Shown: piece by piece, positions 17,242 through 59,628 of the stretch
Layout: every line of letters begins with the position of its first letter
Position numbering within the stretch: the stretch's first letter is position 1
Virus record (IMG/VR): IMGVR_UViG_3300043435_001124
DNA from: an uncultured virus (IMG/VR IMGVR_UViG_3300043435_001124)
Lineage: Duplodnaviria > Heunggongvirae > Uroviricota > Caudoviricetes
Reading direction: 5' to 3' (one strand)
DNA length: 64,000 bases
Made by a program: the position numbers and the translations under genes
The notes under the pieces: model-generated
What the model was told of the DNA's origin: nothing
Databases searched by the model: none
What the model saw: only the letters and a program-made list of their open reading frames with translations

Positions 17242-18417
17242 ATGCAGTACAATTTTATGGCACCAGAAGAGCAAAACATTAAAGGAATGACGGTTTTTAA
17301 TACTAAAGAAGTGGATACTAAAAAGCAACCAATGTTTTTTGGTGCTCCTCTAGGAGTTCAAAGATATGACTCATATAAGTATCCAGTTTTTGATAAATTA
17401 ACCCAACAACAATTAAGTTATTTTTGGAGACCCGAAGAAATCTCACTTCAAAAAGATCGCGGAGATTATCAAACTCTCCGTTCAGAACAGAAGCATATTT
17501 TTACTTCTAATTTGAAGTATCAGATTATGCTTGATTCTATTCAAGGTCGTGGTCCCGGTATGGCATTTTTACCATATTGTTCGCTTCCTGAACTAGAGGC
17601 ATGTATGACTGTGTGGGAATTTATGGAGATGATCCATAGTCGCTCATACACTTATATTATCAAAAATATCTATTCAGATCCTTGCGAAATTTTTGATACA
17701 ATTATTCATGATGAGCGTATTCTAGAACGCGCCGCAAGTATTACTGAATCTTATGATGAATTTATTCAATCAGCACAAAGTTATGGTACTTCTGAATCTT
17801 GGAAGCACAGACTTGAAGGAGTTAATTACGCAAAGGAGAATCTCAACGATGTTAAAAGAAAACTTTACAGAGCAGTCGCAAACGTTAATATTCTTGAAGG
17901 TATTCGCTTCTACGTTAGTTTTGCTTGCAGTTTCGCCTTTGGTGAACTCAAACTTATGGAAGGATCTGCGAAAATCATATCACTCATCGCAAGAGATGAA
18001 TCACAACATTTAGCACTCACACAAAACATTCTAAACAAATGGAAAGAGGGTGATGATCCTGAAATGCAACAGATTGCAAAAGAAGAAGAGGAGTGGGTTT
18101 ATGCGATGTTTGATCGTGCGGTAAATGAAGAAAAGAAGTGGGCAGACTATCTTTTCAAAGATGGGTCTATGATTGGTCTTAATGATAAACTTCTTCAGAG
18201 ATATGTTGAATGGATTGCAAATCGCCGTATGAAAGCAATTGGCCTCAAACCAGTTTATGATATTCCTGCGAATAATAACCCACTTCCTTGGACTTCTCAC
18301 TGGTTGAATTCGAAAGGTCTTCAGGTGGCCCCTCAGGAAGTGGAAGTTGAAGCATATTTGATTGGTGGAATCAAACAGGATGTTAAGACAGATACATTTA
18401 GTGGATTTAAACTTTAA
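17242..18417 (+). CDS. nrdB: Ribonucleotide reductase beta subunit
   Basis: FWRPEE; EMIHSRSY; LEGIRFYVSF; RDESQH; VAPQE. Confidence 0.98.
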   Translation: MQYNFMAPEEQNIKGMTVFNTKEVDTKKQPMFFGAPLGVQRYDSYKYPVFDKLTQQQLSYFWRPEEISLQKDRGDYQTLRSEQKHIFTSNLKYQIMLDSIQGRGPGMAFLPYCSLPELEACMTVWEFMEMIHSRSYTYIIKNIYSDPCEIFDTIIHDERILERAASITESYDEFIQSAQSYGTSESWKHRLEGVNYAKENLNDVKRKLYRAVANVNILEGIRFYVSFACSFAFGELKLMEGSAKIISLIARDESQHLALTQNILNKWKEGDDPEMQQIAKEEEEWVYAMFDRAVNEEKKWADYLFKDGSMIGLNDKLLQRYVEWIANRRMKAIGLKPVYDIPANNNPLPWTSHWLNSKGLQVAPQEVEVEAYLIGGIKQDVKTDTFSGFKL

Positions 18418-32928: not shown

Positions 32929-33706
32929 ATCATCATATAAACTCAAAAACTTTGGTCCCATATATTACCTAAATCTGGACGGTCAACCGGAAAGAAAAGA
33001 GTATATGGAAGATCAATTTGAATATTGGGAAATTGAAAATTATACACGTATCTCTGCATATGATGGTCGTGAAGATGATCTAAGTGATATTCTTAAAGGT
33101 AAGTATCCAGATATGATGTCTTCAGGTGAGATTGGATGCGTAACATCTCATCTTAAGGCAATCAGACACTGGATGGAAACCTCTGATAGTCCATATGCAG
33201 TTATTATGGAAGATGATTGTGATATAGGTGTTGCTAAGTACTGGAACTTTACCTGGCAAGATTTTATTGCTCGTGCTCCTTATGCTTGGGATGTAATTCA
33301 ACTTGCAATTATTTGTACAGGAGATATTGTAGTTCCTGTTCATAATCGGTTTGTGAATGATTTTTCTACTGCGTGTTATGTAATTACTCGTCATCATGCT
33401 CAGAAATTAATTAATAATCACATCCGTGCTGATAAGTACAAACTTGATAATGGTGTAAAACCAAGAGCAGTTGCTGATGATTTAATTTATAATTCTGGAT
33501 GTACTTATGCTACTCCTATGCTCTTATATAAAACAGATCTAGGATCCACTATACATCCAGAGCATGTGGATATTTTTCATAAGAATAGTTATAATGCAAT
33601 ATTAAATTTTTGGGAAACTCAAGGAAGTCAGTTGACATTAGATCAAATTACGAGTTATGACCCTTATCTGGGTAGGATAACCGAACCTTCTCAAAAGTCC
33701 GCTTGA
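32915..33706 (+). CDS. Glycosyltransferase family 25
   Basis: YYLNLD...ER; RISAYDG; GEIGCVTSH; IMEDD. Confidence 0.88.
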   Translation: MDKNKSSYKLKNFGPIYYLNLDGQPERKEYMEDQFEYWEIENYTRISAYDGREDDLSDILKGKYPDMMSSGEIGCVTSHLKAIRHWMETSDSPYAVIMEDDCDIGVAKYWNFTWQDFIARAPYAWDVIQLAIICTGDIVVPVHNRFVNDFSTACYVITRHHAQKLINNHIRADKYKLDNGVKPRAVADDLIYNSGCTYATPMLLYKTDLGSTIHPEHVDIFHKNSYNAILNFWETQGSQLTLDQITSYDPYLGRITEPSQKSA

Positions 33707-33800
33707 CAAATTCAAAATTCTGGTCTATCATAAATATGTTCTTAGAATCCCTTGTTGGAATTCTTAACACTTGTCCTTTAGTATAAAAACAAAAAACTTT

Positions 33801-35327
33801 ATGAAAATCGAACAACTGATGCTTGCGCCCGTTGCTCTTGGTATGATTGCTCCCATTGCCGCAAATGCTGCAGAAATGAATCTTGTAGCAGTCAATCAAT
33901 ATGCCACCAGCGATCAGGTTACAAGTGTCACACAGTTCTCTGATGTTCGTCCAAGTGATTGGGCATATCAGGCACTTTCAAATCTTGTAGAACAATACGG
34001 TTGCGTTGCTGGTTATCCTAATGGCACCTTTAAAGGTGGTCAGGCAATGACCCGTTATGAGGCAGCAGCACTTCTGAATGCTTGCCTAGATCGTGTTACT
34101 GAAGTCACTGACGAACTCAAGAAACTTCTGAATGAATTTCAGGGTGAACTTGCGATTCTTCGTGGTCGTGTAGATGGTCTAGAAGCAAAGGTGGGTGAAC
34201 TGGAGGCAAATCAATTCTCTACCACCACCAAACTTCGTGGTGATACTCGTTGGGTTCTTGGCGGTATTTCCTACGGTGGAGACAGTAAGGACAACTACAA
34301 GAATCTTCGTGAATCTGTATCCTTTAATTATGATGTTCGTCTGAACTTTGATACTTCATTCACTGGTAAGGATCTACTTCGCACTCAACTTCGTGCTGGT
34401 AACTTTAGGGATAGTGCCTTTGGTGCCGCTCCTACGCCTCTTACCAAACTAGATGCTGGATTTGAAGAGAACATCGGTAATGCTGATGGTGGTGATGTAG
34501 TTGCGATTAATCGTCTCTACTACAAGTTCCCTGTTGGCAAAGAGTTTACTGTTGTTGGTGGTCCAGTAGTTCGTCAGGATGATCTGCTTGCTGTGTGGCC
34601 TTCTGTATACACCTCTGATAAGATCCTGAAGGTCTTCCAGTTTGCCGGTGCTCCAGGTGCCTACAATCAGATCCTGGGTGGCGGTGCTGGTGCTTATTGG
34701 AAGAGGGGTGGTTGGTCTGTCGGTGCCGCTTATGTTGCCGGTAATGCTGACCAAGGTAATAGTGCAACTGGTGGTATTGCTAACGGGAACTCTGCTGCTT
34801 CTAGCACAGTTCAACTTGCATACACTGGAAAGAACTGGAACCTGACTGGTGCTTACAACTACTCCAACTATGGTGTAAGTAATGCTGGTACTTCTTTTGA
34901 AACCAGTCTTCTTCCTAATGCAACTACTGGTGGTCAGACTAACTCTGTCTCTCTTGCTGGTTATTGGCAACCCATTAAGTCTGGATGGGCACCTTCTGTT
35001 TCCGCTGGTTGGGGTTACAATGCAATCGGTTATAATGAAGGTGATGGTGTAACTTCTCAATCTTGGTACACTGGTCTGGTTTGGAAAGATGTGATTGCAA
35101 AGGGTAATGCTCTTGGTGTTGCAGTTGGTCAACCTACCTTTGTTACTAATGTCGATAATGGAAACGCTAATGATGGTCAGTATGCTCTTGAGGCATACTA
35201 CAAGATGCAGGTAACTGATAATATTTCAGTTACGCCAGCAATTTTCTATCTGTCTGCACCTCGTGGAGAGACTGATAAGAACCTGGATGCATTTGGTGCA
35301 TTAGTGCAAACAACTTTCCGTTTTTGA
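33801..35327 (+). CDS. Cyanobacterial SLH-domain outer-membrane porin (SomA/OprB-like)
   Basis: Signal peptide; QVTSVTQFSDVRPSDWAYQAL; TRYEAAALLNACLD; FSTTTKL; C-terminal TTFRF. Confidence 0.92.
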   Translation: MKIEQLMLAPVALGMIAPIAANAAEMNLVAVNQYATSDQVTSVTQFSDVRPSDWAYQALSNLVEQYGCVAGYPNGTFKGGQAMTRYEAAALLNACLDRVTEVTDELKKLLNEFQGELAILRGRVDGLEAKVGELEANQFSTTTKLRGDTRWVLGGISYGGDSKDNYKNLRESVSFNYDVRLNFDTSFTGKDLLRTQLRAGNFRDSAFGAAPTPLTKLDAGFEENIGNADGGDVVAINRLYYKFPVGKEFTVVGGPVVRQDDLLAVWPSVYTSDKILKVFQFAGAPGAYNQILGGGAGAYWKRGGWSVGAAYVAGNADQGNSATGGIANGNSAASSTVQLAYTGKNWNLTGAYNYSNYGVSNAGTSFETSLLPNATTGGQTNSVSLAGYWQPIKSGWAPSVSAGWGYNAIGYNEGDGVTSQSWYTGLVWKDVIAKGNALGVAVGQPTFVTNVDNGNANDGQYALEAYYKMQVTDNISVTPAIFYLSAPRGETDKNLDAFGALVQTTFRF

Positions 35328-35330
35328 GGT

Positions 35331-35400
35331 TATAAATAAAATCACCTGACTTGTTGGCGCTTTTCAGGTAAAGATTGGGGGGCAGTAATGCCCTCTTTTC
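35331..35400 (+). ncRNA. Candidate late small RNA: promoter, hairpin with antisense loop, terminator
   Basis: TATAAATA 35331-38; ACCTGA/TCAGGT stem; GGGCA-GTAA-TGCCC terminator; loop complementary to 35416-35429. Confidence 0.5.
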
Positions 35401-35438
35401 TTGTATAAATAGTTTCGCCAACAAGTTAGAGAATAACA

Positions 35439-36155
35439 ATGACTTCACAAAGTCCAAGAATTTACACATATAAAATCACATTTGAAGAAGTTCCTTATTA
35501 TTACTATGGGGTTCATAAGGAACAAGGATTTGATGAAGAGTATTGGGGAACTCCCGTAACAAACCGCTGGTGTTGGGAATTTTATACTCCAGAGAAACAA
35601 ATATTGGAACTATTTGAATATAGTGATGAAGGTTGGATAGAAGCGCAAGAAGTTGAAAAAAGAATAATTAAACCAATCCTTAATAATAAATGGTGCCTTA
35701 ATGAAAATTGTAAAGGGATAATTTCTATAGAAGGATGTAAAAAAGGTGGGAGGATTATGGGAAACTATCTTTATAAAAATGGATTAGGTATTCACGCATT
35801 AACAAAAGAACAGCAGATTGAAAATGGAAAGAAGGGAAATAAGGAGGGTAAAAGAAGAAGTGGAAAAAATGCATATCTTATGAAAACTGGAATTCACGCT
35901 TTTACTGCCGAAGAAAAAAAAGAACTTGGAAGAAAGAGTGGTCGTATTAATTTTGAGATGGGACTTGGAATTCATTCTTTAACCCCAGAGCAAAGAGTTG
36001 AAAATGGAAAAAAGGGTGGAAAAATTGCAGGAAGAATAGTTTCCTCTCAAAGATGGAGATGTTTAGTGACCGGATATATTGCTGCCGCTGGTCCGCTAGC
36101 ATCTTATCAAAAAGCAAGAGGTATTGATAAGAGTTTAAGAGAAAGATTGTCTTAA
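35439..36155 (+). CDS. Putative free-standing homing endonuclease (divergent GIY-YIG-like N-terminus plus repeats)
   Basis: IYTYKITF...YYYYGVH...YWG.; CLN; three G.GIH..T.E repeats; late promoter at 35404. Confidence 0.6.
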   Translation: MTSQSPRIYTYKITFEEVPYYYYGVHKEQGFDEEYWGTPVTNRWCWEFYTPEKQILELFEYSDEGWIEAQEVEKRIIKPILNNKWCLNENCKGIISIEGCKKGGRIMGNYLYKNGLGIHALTKEQQIENGKKGNKEGKRRSGKNAYLMKTGIHAFTAEEKKELGRKSGRINFEMGLGIHSLTPEQRVENGKKGGKIAGRIVSSQRWRCLVTGYIAAAGPLASYQKARGIDKSLRERLS

Positions 36156-36195
36156 CCAAATCTTAGTTGACTCCAAACTTTATTTGCGATAGACT
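36151..36195 (+). promoter_or_regulatory. Putative Pho box and sigma70 promoter of pstS
   Basis: CTTAACCA-AAT-CTTAGTTG with 11-nt period, overlapping TTGACT-17-TAGACT. Confidence 0.5.
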
Positions 36196-36229
36196 GTTTA
36201 TGAAGTTTATTTTATCTTCAAAATTTTTT

Positions 36230-37198
36230 ATGAAAATTAAAAATCTATTTGCTATTGGTCTAATTGTTGCTACCCCGGTTGCGGCAATTGCGGGGACTAC
36301 TCTAAACGGTGCGGGAGCCTCCTTTCCATTTTCCATCTACAGTAGATGGTTTAATGATTATGCACGAACTTCTGGGAATAGGGTTAATTATCAGTCCGTT
36401 GGTTCTGGTGCTGGTGTTCGTCAATTCATTGCGGGAACTGTTGATTTCGCAGCATCCGACGAACCAATCAAATCCTCCGAAGCCGCCAAAGTAAAGCGTG
36501 GAGTTGTTCAAATTCCAATGGTTGGAGGTACGATTGCAATTGCTTACAATAAACCCGGTTGTACTCTTAAACTGACTCAACAACAAACCGTAGATGTATT
36601 TCTCAGTAAGATTAATGACTGGAAGCAACTCAAGTGTGCTCCCGGTAAAATCACTACAGTTCATCGTTCTGATGGTTCCGGCACTACATTCGCCTTTACT
36701 AACTCCCTGGAAGCATTCTCATCCTCTTGGACCCCAGGTGTAGGCAAGAGTGTAAAATGGCCTGTAGGGGTCGGTGGAAAGGGTAATGAAGGTGTTTCAG
36801 GTATCATCAAGAATACTCCTGGTTCTCTTGGTTATGTCTCTTATTCCTTTGTGAAGTCTCAAAATCTTCAAGTAGCACAACTTCAAAATAAATCTGGAAA
36901 GTTTGTTTCTCCAGGGGCATCAAGTGGTTCTGCTGCCCTAAATCAAATCACATTAGATACAAATCTTGCTGGAGAAAATCCAAATCCATCAGGCGTTAAT
37001 TCCTATCCAATTTCAACTCTGACTTGGGTTCTTGCATATAAGAATGGAAATGGTGCAAAGACTGATGAGATTCGTGGAGTTCTGAACTATTCGCTGGGTT
37101 CTAAAGCACAAATGATTGCTGATGATTTGGGTTATGTTCCTTTGAGTGGTAGTGTTCTGAATAAGGCACGACTTGCAGTGAATCGTATCAGCAAGTGA
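36230..37198 (+). CDS. pstS: Phosphate ABC transporter substrate-binding protein PstS
   Basis: LNGAGASFP; NYQSVGSGAG; DFAASD; HRSDGSGTT; GKGNEGV; LGYVPL. Confidence 0.96.
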   Translation: MKIKNLFAIGLIVATPVAAIAGTTLNGAGASFPFSIYSRWFNDYARTSGNRVNYQSVGSGAGVRQFIAGTVDFAASDEPIKSSEAAKVKRGVVQIPMVGGTIAIAYNKPGCTLKLTQQQTVDVFLSKINDWKQLKCAPGKITTVHRSDGSGTTFAFTNSLEAFSSSWTPGVGKSVKWPVGVGGKGNEGVSGIIKNTPGSLGYVSYSFVKSQNLQVAQLQNKSGKFVSPGASSGSAALNQITLDTNLAGENPNPSGVNSYPISTLTWVLAYKNGNGAKTDEIRGVLNYSLGSKAQMIADDLGYVPLSGSVLNKARLAVNRISK

Positions 37199-37295
37199 TC
37201 TAAGAACAGTTAGGAAACTGGCACATTACGGTTTCCCAATGCTTGACTTCAAACAAAATTTCATATATAATGACATAGTTCTTTATAAGACTACA

Positions 37296-37505
37296 ATGAC
37301 CGTTACGACCAATGAGCACGGACAGCAAAACCTGTTCGCAAAGGAACCTGAGATGTATGTGTCTCCAACAGATGCAGAGCGTTATGCACTTGAGACTTAT
37401 GCTGAAAAAGCAGAAAAAATGAATGGAAAATTTGCTATGTTAGGATTTGTTGCCGCAGTTGTTTCTTATGCACTCACCGGGAATCTCTTCTTTGGTGTAA
37501 TCTGA
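37296..37505 (+). CDS. hli: High-light-inducible protein
   Basis: AEKMNGKFAMLGF chlorophyll-binding motif; QQNLFAKEP. Confidence 0.9.
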   Translation: MTVTTNEHGQQNLFAKEPEMYVSPTDAERYALETYAEKAEKMNGKFAMLGFVAAVVSYALTGNLFFGVI

Positions 37506-40201: not shown

Positions 40202-41521
40202 ATGACTGCTACAATTGCTACACGCTCTAATACTAATCTATGGAATGATTTCTGTTCCTGGATTACTTCAACGAATAACAGGTTATATGTTGGGTGGTTC
40301 GGAGTCCTTATGATTCCCTGCCTTCTCGCAGCGACTACTTGCTTCATTATTGCTTTTATTGGTGCTCCCCCTGTTGATATTGATGGGATCAGAGAACCAG
40401 TTGCTGGGTCTCTTATGTACGGAAACAACATCATCTCTGGTGCCGTTGTTCCTTCTTCTAATGCTATCGGACTTCACTTTTATCCTATCTGGGAAGCAGC
40501 AAGTCTTGATGAATGGCTCTATAATGGTGGTCCTTTTCAACTTGTTGTATTTCACTTCCTCATCGGCATTTATGCTTATATGGGTCGTGAATGGGAACTC
40601 TCCTATCGTCTAGGAATGCGTCCCTGGATTATGGTTGCTTACAGTGCTCCTGTTGCTGCTGCTACTGCCGTATTCCTAGTCTATCCCTTTGGTCAAGGTT
40701 CTTTCTCTGATGCTATGCCTCTTGGAATTTCTGGAACCTTTAATTATATGCTTGTCTTCCAGGCAGAACATAACATCCTTATGCACCCCTTTCACATGTT
40801 AGGCGTCGCAGGTGTCTTCGGCGGATCACTTTTTAGCGCCATGCACGGTTCACTGGTGACTTCTTCACTGGTTCGTGAGACTACTGAAACTGAATCCCAA
40901 AACTACGGATATAAGTTCGGTCAAGAAGAAGAGACTTACAACATTGTTGCTGCACACGGTTACTTCGGTCGTCTTATTTTCCAATATGCGTCTTTCAATA
41001 ACTCACGCAGTCTCCACTTCTTTCTGGCTGCCTGGCCAGTAGTTGGTATTTGGTTTACTGCTCTTGGCGTAAGCACAATGGCATTTAATCTGAACGGTTT
41101 TAATTTTAACCAGTCCATCGTTGATAGTCAAAACCGAGTAGTTCCTACTTGGGCGGACATTTTAACACGAGCAGGATTGGGTATGGAAGTGATGCACGAA
41201 AGGAACGCACATTAGTAAAATAGTGTCCTTACTGAGAAATTGGTAAGTGTAAATCGGATGAATTGCTGGAAACCCTCCAAATATAAGGGCAATCAGCATC
41301 CAAGTCTCAGATACATCTGAGAAAGGTTCAACGACTACCTGAGGGATATAGTTCCCTTAATAACAGGCAAGAGCGTCCGACACCTAAGTTCTAATAGAAT
41401 ACGGTGATGATATAGTCTTCTCCATAAGAATGGTAAACTTATGGGTCCAGAGAACTTTCCTTTAGATCTTGCATTTTTAGAATCAACCCCAGTTGCTCTA
41501 ACGGCACCTACAGTAGGTTGA
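40202..41521 (+). CDS. psbA: Photosystem II D1 protein; exons 40202-41212 and 41453-41521 (359 aa spliced)
   Basis: Canonical D1 sequence; exon 1 ends MHERNAH, exon 2 reads [22 protein letters not shown]. Confidence 0.98.
41213..41452 (+). mobile_element. Group I self-splicing intron (240 nt, no ORF)
   Basis: Exon ends in U with P1 ACAU/GUGU (U.G at the splice site); P AATTGCTGGAA; Q AATCAGCA; P7 GACTA/TAGTC; terminal G; splicing restores the frame. Confidence 0.95.
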
Positions 41522-41549
41522 TATAACTTCCAACTAATGGTATAATATT

Positions 41550-41584
41550 GAGGAACTCTTCGGGGTTCCTTTTTTGTATAAATA
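41550..41584 (+). terminator. psbA terminator followed by late promoter
   Basis: GAGGAACTC-TTCG-GGGTTCCTT stem with T-run; TATAAATA 41577-84. Confidence 0.85.
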
Positions 41585-41613
41585 ACTATAGCACTAACTT
41601 TGGATTAGAAGTA

Positions 41614-58687: not shown

Positions 58688-59134
58688 TTAAAAAAGTTCG
58701 TTTTCTGTAATGACTTTGAACTTTATCATTCTATCTTCACACCACTCCACGATGGATTTCCATTTTGATTGATTAACGGCATAAGTATTCACTTCATTAA
58801 TATAAGTTTTATTTTTCTTTTTTCCTTGTACTGGCGGTACTGTTTGTCTTTTTGGTTTTATTTCTATTACATACTTTTGTATTTTTCCATTATCTTCTAA
58901 CATTTCTACAATAAAATCCGGAAAATATCTACATACTTTTTCTTTTACTGGATTATAATATGGTATAGAAAATTCTTCAGACCCATATCTTAATATATTT
59001 GGAGACCTATCACACCACTGCATAAACTTAAGTTCCCAACTGCTGCGGTAGATTATATTTTGAACGTCTCCAATATATTTTTTTGGATTTCTTGGATTAA
59101 ATCTACCCTGATGATATTTTGAATCACGAGGCAT
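58688..59134 (-). CDS. 4: Head completion protein gp4
   Basis: P.NP.KY.GD...I.YRSSWE; SEE..IPY; RYFPDF; EIKP; N..KW. Confidence 0.92.
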   Translation of the reverse strand: MPRDSKYHQGRFNPRNPKKYIGDVQNIIYRSSWELKFMQWCDRSPNILRYGSEEFSIPYYNPVKEKVCRYFPDFIVEMLEDNGKIQKYVIEIKPKRQTVPPVQGKKKNKTYINEVNTYAVNQSKWKSIVEWCEDRMIKFKVITENELF

Positions 59135-59588
59135 TTTTCCATCCTTTATGTGATTTTCTTTTTCCAGAAAGAACAGAACCTAATTTTGATGGGTTTAAAT
59201 TTAATTCTTTACTTATATGAGTTATGCAATCAAATTCAACTATTTCCCCATCCTTAGAAATTATTTTTCCTCCTTTTTGTAGATGTGGATAAGTATGTCC
59301 TTTATTATGTGCAGGTTTTCCTCTTCTTTTTTCTACAGATGCTTTAATTGCTTTACTCATATCCCTTCCACTTTTCGCTTCTCTCATCAATTCCAAAGTT
59401 TCTTCAGAATAGATTCCAATTTTTCCTTTATTCCAAGGAGTGTGATTTTTTTCAAATCCTCCAAGAGAATTGTTAATTTTTTCTACGGAATCAATATATT
59501 CTATTTTAATAATTTCACTACCATCAATATTAAAAACATCACATAATGTTTTAGTATTCCAGTATTCTACTTTTTTTATATTTGACAT
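59124..59588 (-). CDS. Endonuclease-associated DNA-binding (NUMOD3/NUMOD1-like) protein
   Basis: PWNKGK...SEET...M..AK; AHNKG; C-terminal HTH ending GKRKSHKGW. Confidence 0.65.
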   Translation of the reverse strand: MSNIKKVEYWNTKTLCDVFNIDGSEIIKIEYIDSVEKINNSLGGFEKNHTPWNKGKIGIYSEETLELMREAKSGRDMSKAIKASVEKRRGKPAHNKGHTYPHLQKGGKIISKDGEIVEFDCITHISKELNLNPSKLGSVLSGKRKSHKGWKNAS

Positions 59589-59595
59589 ATTGAAC

Positions 59596-59628
59596 TATAA
59601 ATATATAATAAACTGTAGAATATTTATA
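59596..59628. promoter_or_regulatory. Overlapping oppositely oriented late promoters
   Basis: TATAAATA on + at 59596-603 and on - at 59621-628. Confidence 0.7.

Follow-up and report, generated by a model that had tools for sequence, protein, structure and literature searches.

The window analysed here, the whole stretch of 64,000 nucleotides, derived from a T4-like freshwater cyanophage, as judged by its T4 core genes, a tRNA cluster, and wcaG and PhotoRC-II RNAs; its psbA carries a group I intron. On the + strand, an SLH/OprB porin gene was followed by a compact module, an open reading frame (ORF) of 238 aa, and pstS. The module (35331–35441) comprised, in this order, a late promoter, an antisense hairpin, a terminator, a second late promoter, the target of the antisense segment, and the AUG. 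The elements named in a preliminary description of this DNA, i.e., TATAAATA at 35331 and 35404, the hairpin arms, the terminator, and the ATG at 35439, were all found in place. The features considered below are:

33703–33731, + strand: sigma-70-like promoter, early type, ahead of the porin gene (11/12 consensus matches; assigned by consensus match only)
33801–35327, + strand: upstream SLH/OprB porin gene (Pfam OprB and SLH)
35331–35338, + strand: P1, predicted late promoter box (T4 type) for the small RNA, sequence TATAAATA
35344–35401, + strand: candidate small antisense RNA of about 56–58 nt with predicted ends, beginning 5 nt past P1 (fold −23.2 kcal/mol, z −3.6)
35344–35369, + strand: hairpin 1, its first base being the predicted +1 (from the fold)
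35346–35358, + strand: antisense segment, pairing with mRNA +1 to +13
35355–35358, + strand: apical loop, a toehold complementary to mRNA +1 to +4
35377–35403, + strand: intrinsic terminator with an 8-pair stem (35377–35396), GTAA loop, and U-rich tail, longest U run 4
35404–35411, + strand: P2, predicted late promoter box of the nuclease gene
35417–35429, + strand: target, occupying nt 1–13 of the 22-nt leader predicted at 35417–35438, beginning 5 nt past P2
35439–36155, + strand: gene for a free-standing Seg-like GIY-YIG homing endonuclease of 238 aa (predicted structure, language-model neighbours)
36167–36195, + strand: sigma-70-like promoter of the downstream pstS gene (9/12 matches; weak, at chance level)

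A porin transcript would presumably stop at the module terminator, its 3′ end bearing the antisense hairpin; no other + strand terminator was found in 33600–37400. The phage-borne cyanobacterial porin gene (33801–35327) lies near pstS (36230–37198), and at most other porin loci an hli-like gene followed the porin gene. The module-nuclease gene was missing from the 17 other porin loci examined, which were 68–80% identical, included one that was cut short, and are not true empty alleles. Its closest cultured relatives were found in Synechococcus phages S-SRM01, B3, and B23.

Elsewhere in the window, a second GIY-YIG-like gene (41614, after psbA) had an upstream region without the module. Inspected by eye, this region (41517–41613) held a sigma-70-like promoter (about 41518–41546), then a strong hairpin of the terminator type and, at 41577, a late box. 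The group I intron (41203–41436) lies near the 3′ end of psbA and has no internal ORF, the nuclease gene being downstream of the last exon. On the minus strand, a 154-aa ORF (59124–59628) contained an I-HmuI NUMOD-like domain and no recognised nuclease domain, and the late box ahead of it (59621) points away from that at 59596. The starts of the module-linked ORFs of three further loci (L031, L464, and L476), for which no informative family was found, resembled this 154-aa ORF.

The preliminary description had taken the gene downstream of the module for an endonuclease, an identification supported here by a GIY-YIG-type fold recognised through structural match and language-model neighbours. 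The AlphaFold model of the 238-aa protein (pLDDT 78.6, pTM 0.38) consisted of an N-terminal nuclease fold, helical Gly/Lys-rich repeats, and a small C-terminal domain. Its best structural match among 48,161 chains was the catalytic domain of I-TevI, with a moderate Z of 6.8 (rmsd 2.6, 76 residues aligned), and EndoII, UvrC, and HIGLE were also among the top six. The language-model (Atlas) neighbours of residues 1–100 were GIY-YIG/SegE clusters at 0.94–0.95. A Pfam search of the protein returned no hit, GIY-YIG included, nor did a PDB sequence search with the family profile; Foldseek with the model gave no match at E ≤ 0.001, and PHROG a weak homing-endonuclease match (phrog_314). The protein had 2008 homologues; among 52 homologues, I8, Y22, Y23, G24, E73, and N88 were invariant and Y9 nearly so. 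This set of seven may map onto the catalytic residues of I-TevI; no Arg is present at the I-TevI position. The protein was read as a putative free-standing Seg-like homing endonuclease. Its middle part (35720–36155) consists of helical repeats of ~22 residues whose number varies widely, homologues being about 170–365 aa long. The best structural match of the repeat region, a weak one, was the DNA-binding STPR repeat (Z 5.2), and the repeats possibly serve modular DNA recognition.

The late box of T4 occupies −13 to −6 (PMC2988020), and NATAAATA is described as its cyanophage version (PMC2984593). Applying the T4 late-box spacing placed both predicted start sites: P1 would start at 35344, where the hairpin begins, and P2 at 35417, where the part of the target present in an mRNA begins. 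The preliminary description had proposed a separately promoted and terminated RNA of ~55 nt from 35341; the separate promoter and terminator stand, the start shifts to 35344 by T4 spacing, and the length becomes about 56–58 nt. The 14-nt pairing that it had reported between 35346–35359 and 35416–35429, with one G·U, was reproduced. By analogy with T4 the nuclease mRNA should start at 35417, so that 13 of the 14 pairs would be available in trans, 35359 giving one further pair in cis only. None of 5000 shuffles of the upstream segment reached a 14-nt run (best 13), and the 10-mer at the target start occurred once per strand of the 83.7-kb contig, exactly at these two sites. The arms of hairpin 1, ACCTGA/TCAGGT, occupy 35344–35349 and 35364–35369. 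Presentation of the antisense seed in a loop, as formerly described, applies to the apical 4-nt loop (35355–35358), which is unpaired in the MFE fold and matches mRNA +1 to +4; it does not apply to a 14-nt loop, which is partly closed. The complementarity was also said to run into the probable Shine-Dalgarno sequence; there is no strong Shine-Dalgarno, and the duplex stops 9 nt short of the AUG. A search of the locus against Rfam 15 gave no match at gathering score, the best weak ones (E 0.8–8) belonging to unrelated families, none of them c4.

Searching with an HMM of the N-terminal domain yielded 223 hits in the loci examined, corresponding to 154 distinct upstream regions; 15 of these were dropped as truncated or lacking the N-terminus, leaving 139 usable loci. 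Both promoter boxes, with a TAAATA box at P1, were present at the right spacing in 131 of the 139 (T4-like freshwater cyanophages) and absent in eight, one of which (L002) kept the hairpin and most of the pairing and was missing P1. The boxes were kept behind upstream ORFs of the nuclease homologues that spanned 75 clusters among 114. P1 stood 4–5 nt ahead of the hairpin in 131 of the 132 loci having the hairpin and was more degenerate than P2, the full TATAAATA being found in 31/131 vs. 117/131 loci. Seventeen different 5′ arms occurred among 168 distinct hairpins, and the stem was maintained by co-variation of the arms (mean stem score 8.3 vs. 6.3 for swapped arms); the first base of the hairpin was unpaired with the target in 162 of the 168. 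The terminator was conserved as well, its U run being 4 U in 115/131 loci. The end of the duplex lay 5–10 nt ahead of the AUG in 124/131, covering a weak AG-rich stretch only and leaving the AUG outside the helix.

The idea that P1 is merely a stop codon plus ATA was rejected, as its overlap with the upstream stop codon varied across the 131 loci (offset 0 in 34, +4 in 22, −3 in 13, and elsewhere in the rest). That P1 was a host promoter already at the insertion site was not supported either, since among the 17 other porin loci (68–80% identical) the box followed the porin stop in just one and was missing in 16. A degenerate extra copy of the late box, made of one or two tandem 10-nt units, was often seen between the terminator and P2 (e.g., L004, L109, L125).

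The conservation and co-variation of antisense and leader, proposed as a test in the preliminary description, were strongly evident in the homologues, in seed variety, alignment shuffles, and tree counts alike. The 131 loci held 50 distinct 8-nt seeds and 88 distinct pairs, changes occurring on both sides together. With the register picked to maximise pairing over +1 to +12, pairs were present at +1 to +7 in 130–131 loci, at +8 to +11 in 117–129, at −1 in 118, at −2 in 19, and at −3 in 97, both −1 and −3 being near-invariant letters. In an independent count, with 54 loci (the window and 53 of the 59 with this hairpin register) aligned by MAFFT, 90.5% of cells were paired vs. 71.5% after shuffling, with 154 vs. 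38 double changes; 0 of 500 shuffles reached the observed paired fraction or double-change count, and the −2 pair held in 5/54. On a protein tree (FastTree, first 95 residues, L225 left out), all changes at +1 to +4 were concurrent on both sides (7, 10, 52, and 40 changes) and those at −2 were largely independent (32 and 36 changes, 53 joint), co-variation counts of this kind being inflated by module swapping between genes. A best-duplex search without bias began at −1 in 67/88 pairs and at +1 in 6/88, and 14/88 reached upstream of −1. Position −1 was a near-invariant A:U that, on departure from A:U, was unpaired in 8/10 cases, and changes at +1 were compensated. The boundary of co-variation coincided with the predicted mRNA start of P2, which promoter constraint on −5 to −1 could partly explain. 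At one of the 131 loci (L225, upstream of position 179), antisense and target belonged to different seed classes, with a computed binding of −5.0 kcal/mol; this locus may have arisen by natural recombination within the shared terminator, or it may be a chimera of the assembly.

Architecture-based searches and a module scanner extended the collection to 216 distinct modules with 74 8-nt seeds. The scanner demands pairing, so per-position pairing in this set is circular, and pairing rates were taken from the 131 loci chosen by protein homology and promoter boxes. The downstream ORFs belonged to the family of the 238-aa nuclease in 135 modules, to other clusters of 30, 13, 12, 11, and 4, and to seven singletons, four modules having no long ORF. 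Representatives scored as GIY-YIG, NUMOD3-bearing homing endonucleases, HNH, EndoVII-like, and, once, TnpB, and no informative family was found for one cluster and three singletons. Eighteen 10-nt seeds were common to more than one of these clusters. Up to seven modules occurred in one record; the cultured phage S-SRM01 had six modules with six seeds, B3 had three, and the 83.7-kb contig of the source genome (43% complete) had one, while the S-PM2 record gave no match to the module. In S-SRM01 (MW015081), the six lie near 17955, 48435, 51249, 55961, 62408, and 192423. A loose pattern scan of bacterial genomes, with 0 modules in 120 loci among the matches listed, serves only as a negative control for the scanner. 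One module of the collection (L434, G008; minus strand, 279–1580), complete and with cognate pairing, lay directly ahead of an IS605-type TnpB gene (399 aa; PF01385, PF07282) in a cyanophage; here an RNA-guided nuclease is predicted to be under late-promoter and antisense control.

The two complementary copies could instead form a DNA inverted repeat, acting as an operator for autorepression by the nuclease in the manner of I-TevI, which represses its own late promoter (PMC2988022); one copy does lie directly behind P2. The departures from complementarity were, however, strand-biased (63 G·U vs. 8 A·C), which identifies the pairing as one of RNA on the + strand. A single protein family, moreover, uses 50 seeds, and the eighteen shared 10-nt seeds are common to different nuclease clusters (GIY-YIG and HNH, with differing C-terminal domains). 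We therefore consider an operator very improbable.

The combination of a constant scaffold with a variable loop beside a mobile nuclease, in one module ahead of a TnpB, also resembles a guide RNA bound by the nuclease for DNA targeting (OMEGA- or bridge-RNA-like). Against this, the variable part matched only the element's own leader in the 83.7-kb contig (43% complete), and proteins of unrelated folds share one scaffold and its seeds. Seed and insertion site are not linked, as 25 of 28 recurring seeds occurred behind more than one kind of upstream gene. A role as guide is accordingly hard to credit. Because identical seeds precede unrelated nuclease families, nothing suggests binding of the RNA by the protein, and the label "antitoxin", used previously, can be taken as an analogy only.

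We favour the explanation that the small RNA acts functionally in trans on the nuclease mRNA, with a probability of roughly 0.65, forming a two-layer RNA throttle on mobile nuclease genes. Action in trans is favoured because the hairpin sits at the predicted +1 of P1, the target at the predicted +1 of P2, and the toehold in the apical loop. In computed folds, the loop bases facing +1 to +4 had a mean unpaired probability of 0.94–0.95 over the 88 pairs, and mRNA +1 to +3 was 0.86–0.90 unpaired. Computed binding was −13.9 ± 2.2 kcal/mol for cognate vs. −3.5 ± 2.9 kcal/mol for non-cognate combinations, the antisense/target pair of the window ranking first of the 88. According to this mechanism, P1 would yield, in late infection, a stable RNA of ~57 nt with a hairpin at its first base and the terminator at its end, and P2 would yield the mRNA of the nuclease. 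This mRNA would pair through its free 5′ end (+1 to +4) with the apical loop, and pairing would then zip along the 5′ arm, opening hairpin 1 to give a duplex of 12–14 bp that, ending 5–10 nt ahead of the AUG, would exclude the 30S subunit. The 5′ arm would also lock read-through transcripts from the early porin promoter or P1 in cis, as T4 hairpins do. The likely effect would be a short or capped burst of nuclease that does not scale with genome copy number, similar to the multicopy inhibition of IS10.

Regulation in cis only, by contrast, would have the upstream arm mask the start in long read-through transcripts, as in T4 I-TevI, segB, and Aeh1 mobE, and would leave the short P1 RNA without a pairing role. 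P1 would then do something else, e.g., occlude P2 through a polymerase terminating alongside. The T4 precedent is well established (PMC2988022). The long-range fold at the locus had a z of −6.2, and the long-range helix formed in 87 of 88 computed read-through RNAs and was dominant in that of the window (−40.8 kcal/mol), so that co-variation alone cannot show trans action. Read-through is likely, since the U run is just 4 in most loci, and an early-type promoter lies upstream of the porin gene; together with the helix, these features make it very likely that the design includes a T4-style cis lock. Co-transcriptional folding in cis would likewise benefit from a toehold that faces the bases made first. 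Nor was there an orthogonality signal among modules of the same genome: in 64 modules from 23 records (excluding G007, which duplicates G004), mean binding was −3.30 kcal/mol within vs. −3.29 kcal/mol between genomes (permutation P = 0.53), and identical seeds stood side by side in G001 and in G009.

However, control in cis only leaves unexplained the nearly constant distance of P1 from the hairpin, the competing hairpin with its own varying arms, and the onset of co-variation exactly at the predicted mRNA start. The products of P1 would be useless in such a scheme. For any such product, computation gives an accessible toehold and binding to the P2 leader of about −14 kcal/mol. We thus regard it as unlikely that cis pairing acts by itself; this pairing, which the preliminary description had offered as the alternative, probably operates alongside trans action. 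Control in the reverse direction, with the 5′ end of the mRNA binding nascent P1 RNA and altering termination (attenuation or antitermination), would fit with the opening of hairpin 1 just upstream of the terminator. In all 86 sRNA-mRNA complexes computed, however, the terminator retained no less than 70% of its pairs; no antiterminator is therefore predicted to form, and this possibility seems most improbable.

RBS-sequestering hairpins with a nested late promoter are described in T-even phages for I-TevI/II/III, segB, Aeh1 mobE, e, soc, and 49 (PMC2988022, PMC3014915), and similar ones with a late promoter were predicted at fractured-gene endonucleases (PMC2677866). Long transcripts are locked by these masks, and late transcripts are without the upstream arm (PMC2988022, PMC3014915, PMC2677866). 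Compared with the masks as the available parts of these papers describe them, the module is distinct in combining a shared scaffold with a seed that varies, and in passing from one nuclease family to another. It also differs in that the masking arm has its own predicted late promoter, its own hairpin, and a terminator before the target. The class of gene and type of promoter are the same, and P2 (35404) lies between the arms (35346–35359 and 35416–35429).

RNA-OUT of IS10 is encoded opposite its target and overlaps it, unlike the antisense of the module, which lies on the same strand upstream, has 12–14 nt of complementarity, and is linked to phage late promoters. The hairpin loop of RNA-OUT initiates pairing on RNA-IN, a mobile-element mRNA, by seizing its unstructured 5′ tail, and translation is blocked; orthogonal pairs result when the seed is altered (PMC4737173). 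The module is similar in that its loop bases and the mRNA 5′ end are unpaired, as computed with the start site set by T4 spacing. The c4 RNA of phages P1 and P7 is a small RNA with loop-borne complementary bases that blocks translation in trans, seed differences setting immunity groups (PMC12197685). Unlike c4, the module has no Rfam match, resides in a lytic T4-like phage, and has one seed instead of two and a nuclease instead of an antirepressor as target; its RNA also appears to be a primary transcript, in contrast to the processed c4. The CI RNA of P4 is akin to c4, which is encoded on the same strand upstream. CfrI of cyanophage S-PM2 is a non-coding RNA tied to a homing endonuclease gene, about 225 nt long and covering psbA and the endonuclease gene from the opposite strand (PMC2984593). 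The module is likewise a cyanophage element tied to a homing endonuclease gene, but its candidate RNA is on the same strand and under 60 nt.

In cis the module resembles a T4 mask, and in trans it resembles RNA-OUT or c4, but it departs from each in a defining feature. It is not in Rfam, and no description was found in the literature searched, which lay mostly outside subscription journals. A survey of 10,000 candidate phage RNAs (PMC10690425) held no match in its main text and four of its six supplements; the module may be among the candidates in its alignments.

On balance, we lean slightly towards regarding the modules as an undescribed family of trans-acting small RNAs in T4-like phages. 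The scaffold of this family would be portable, with 74 or more natural 8-nt seeds, and each RNA would capture the 5′ end of its own nuclease mRNA. Exchanged among genes of GIY-YIG, HNH, EndoVII-like, and TnpB type, the scaffold would act as a general licence to carry an enzyme that cuts genomes. A 2010 review stated that T4 had not yielded any functionally characterised small regulatory RNA acting in trans (PMC3014915). The module is a strong and directly testable candidate for a trans-acting RNA in the T4 superfamily, and a cultured pair, phage S-SRM01 with Synechococcus sp. KCZYC6 as host, carries six copies. The set of modules also represents a natural library of largely orthogonal riboregulator pairs, with a scaffold of under 60 nt, for cyanobacterial synthetic biology. 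If the proposed mechanism is true, the RNA, being diffusible, would limit how much nuclease is made as genome copies increase and would cross-silence nucleases with the same seed in co-infecting phages, resulting in RNA-defined homing-immunity groups. How cyanophages manage to carry many free-standing nucleases in a single genome is a question to which the module offers an answer.
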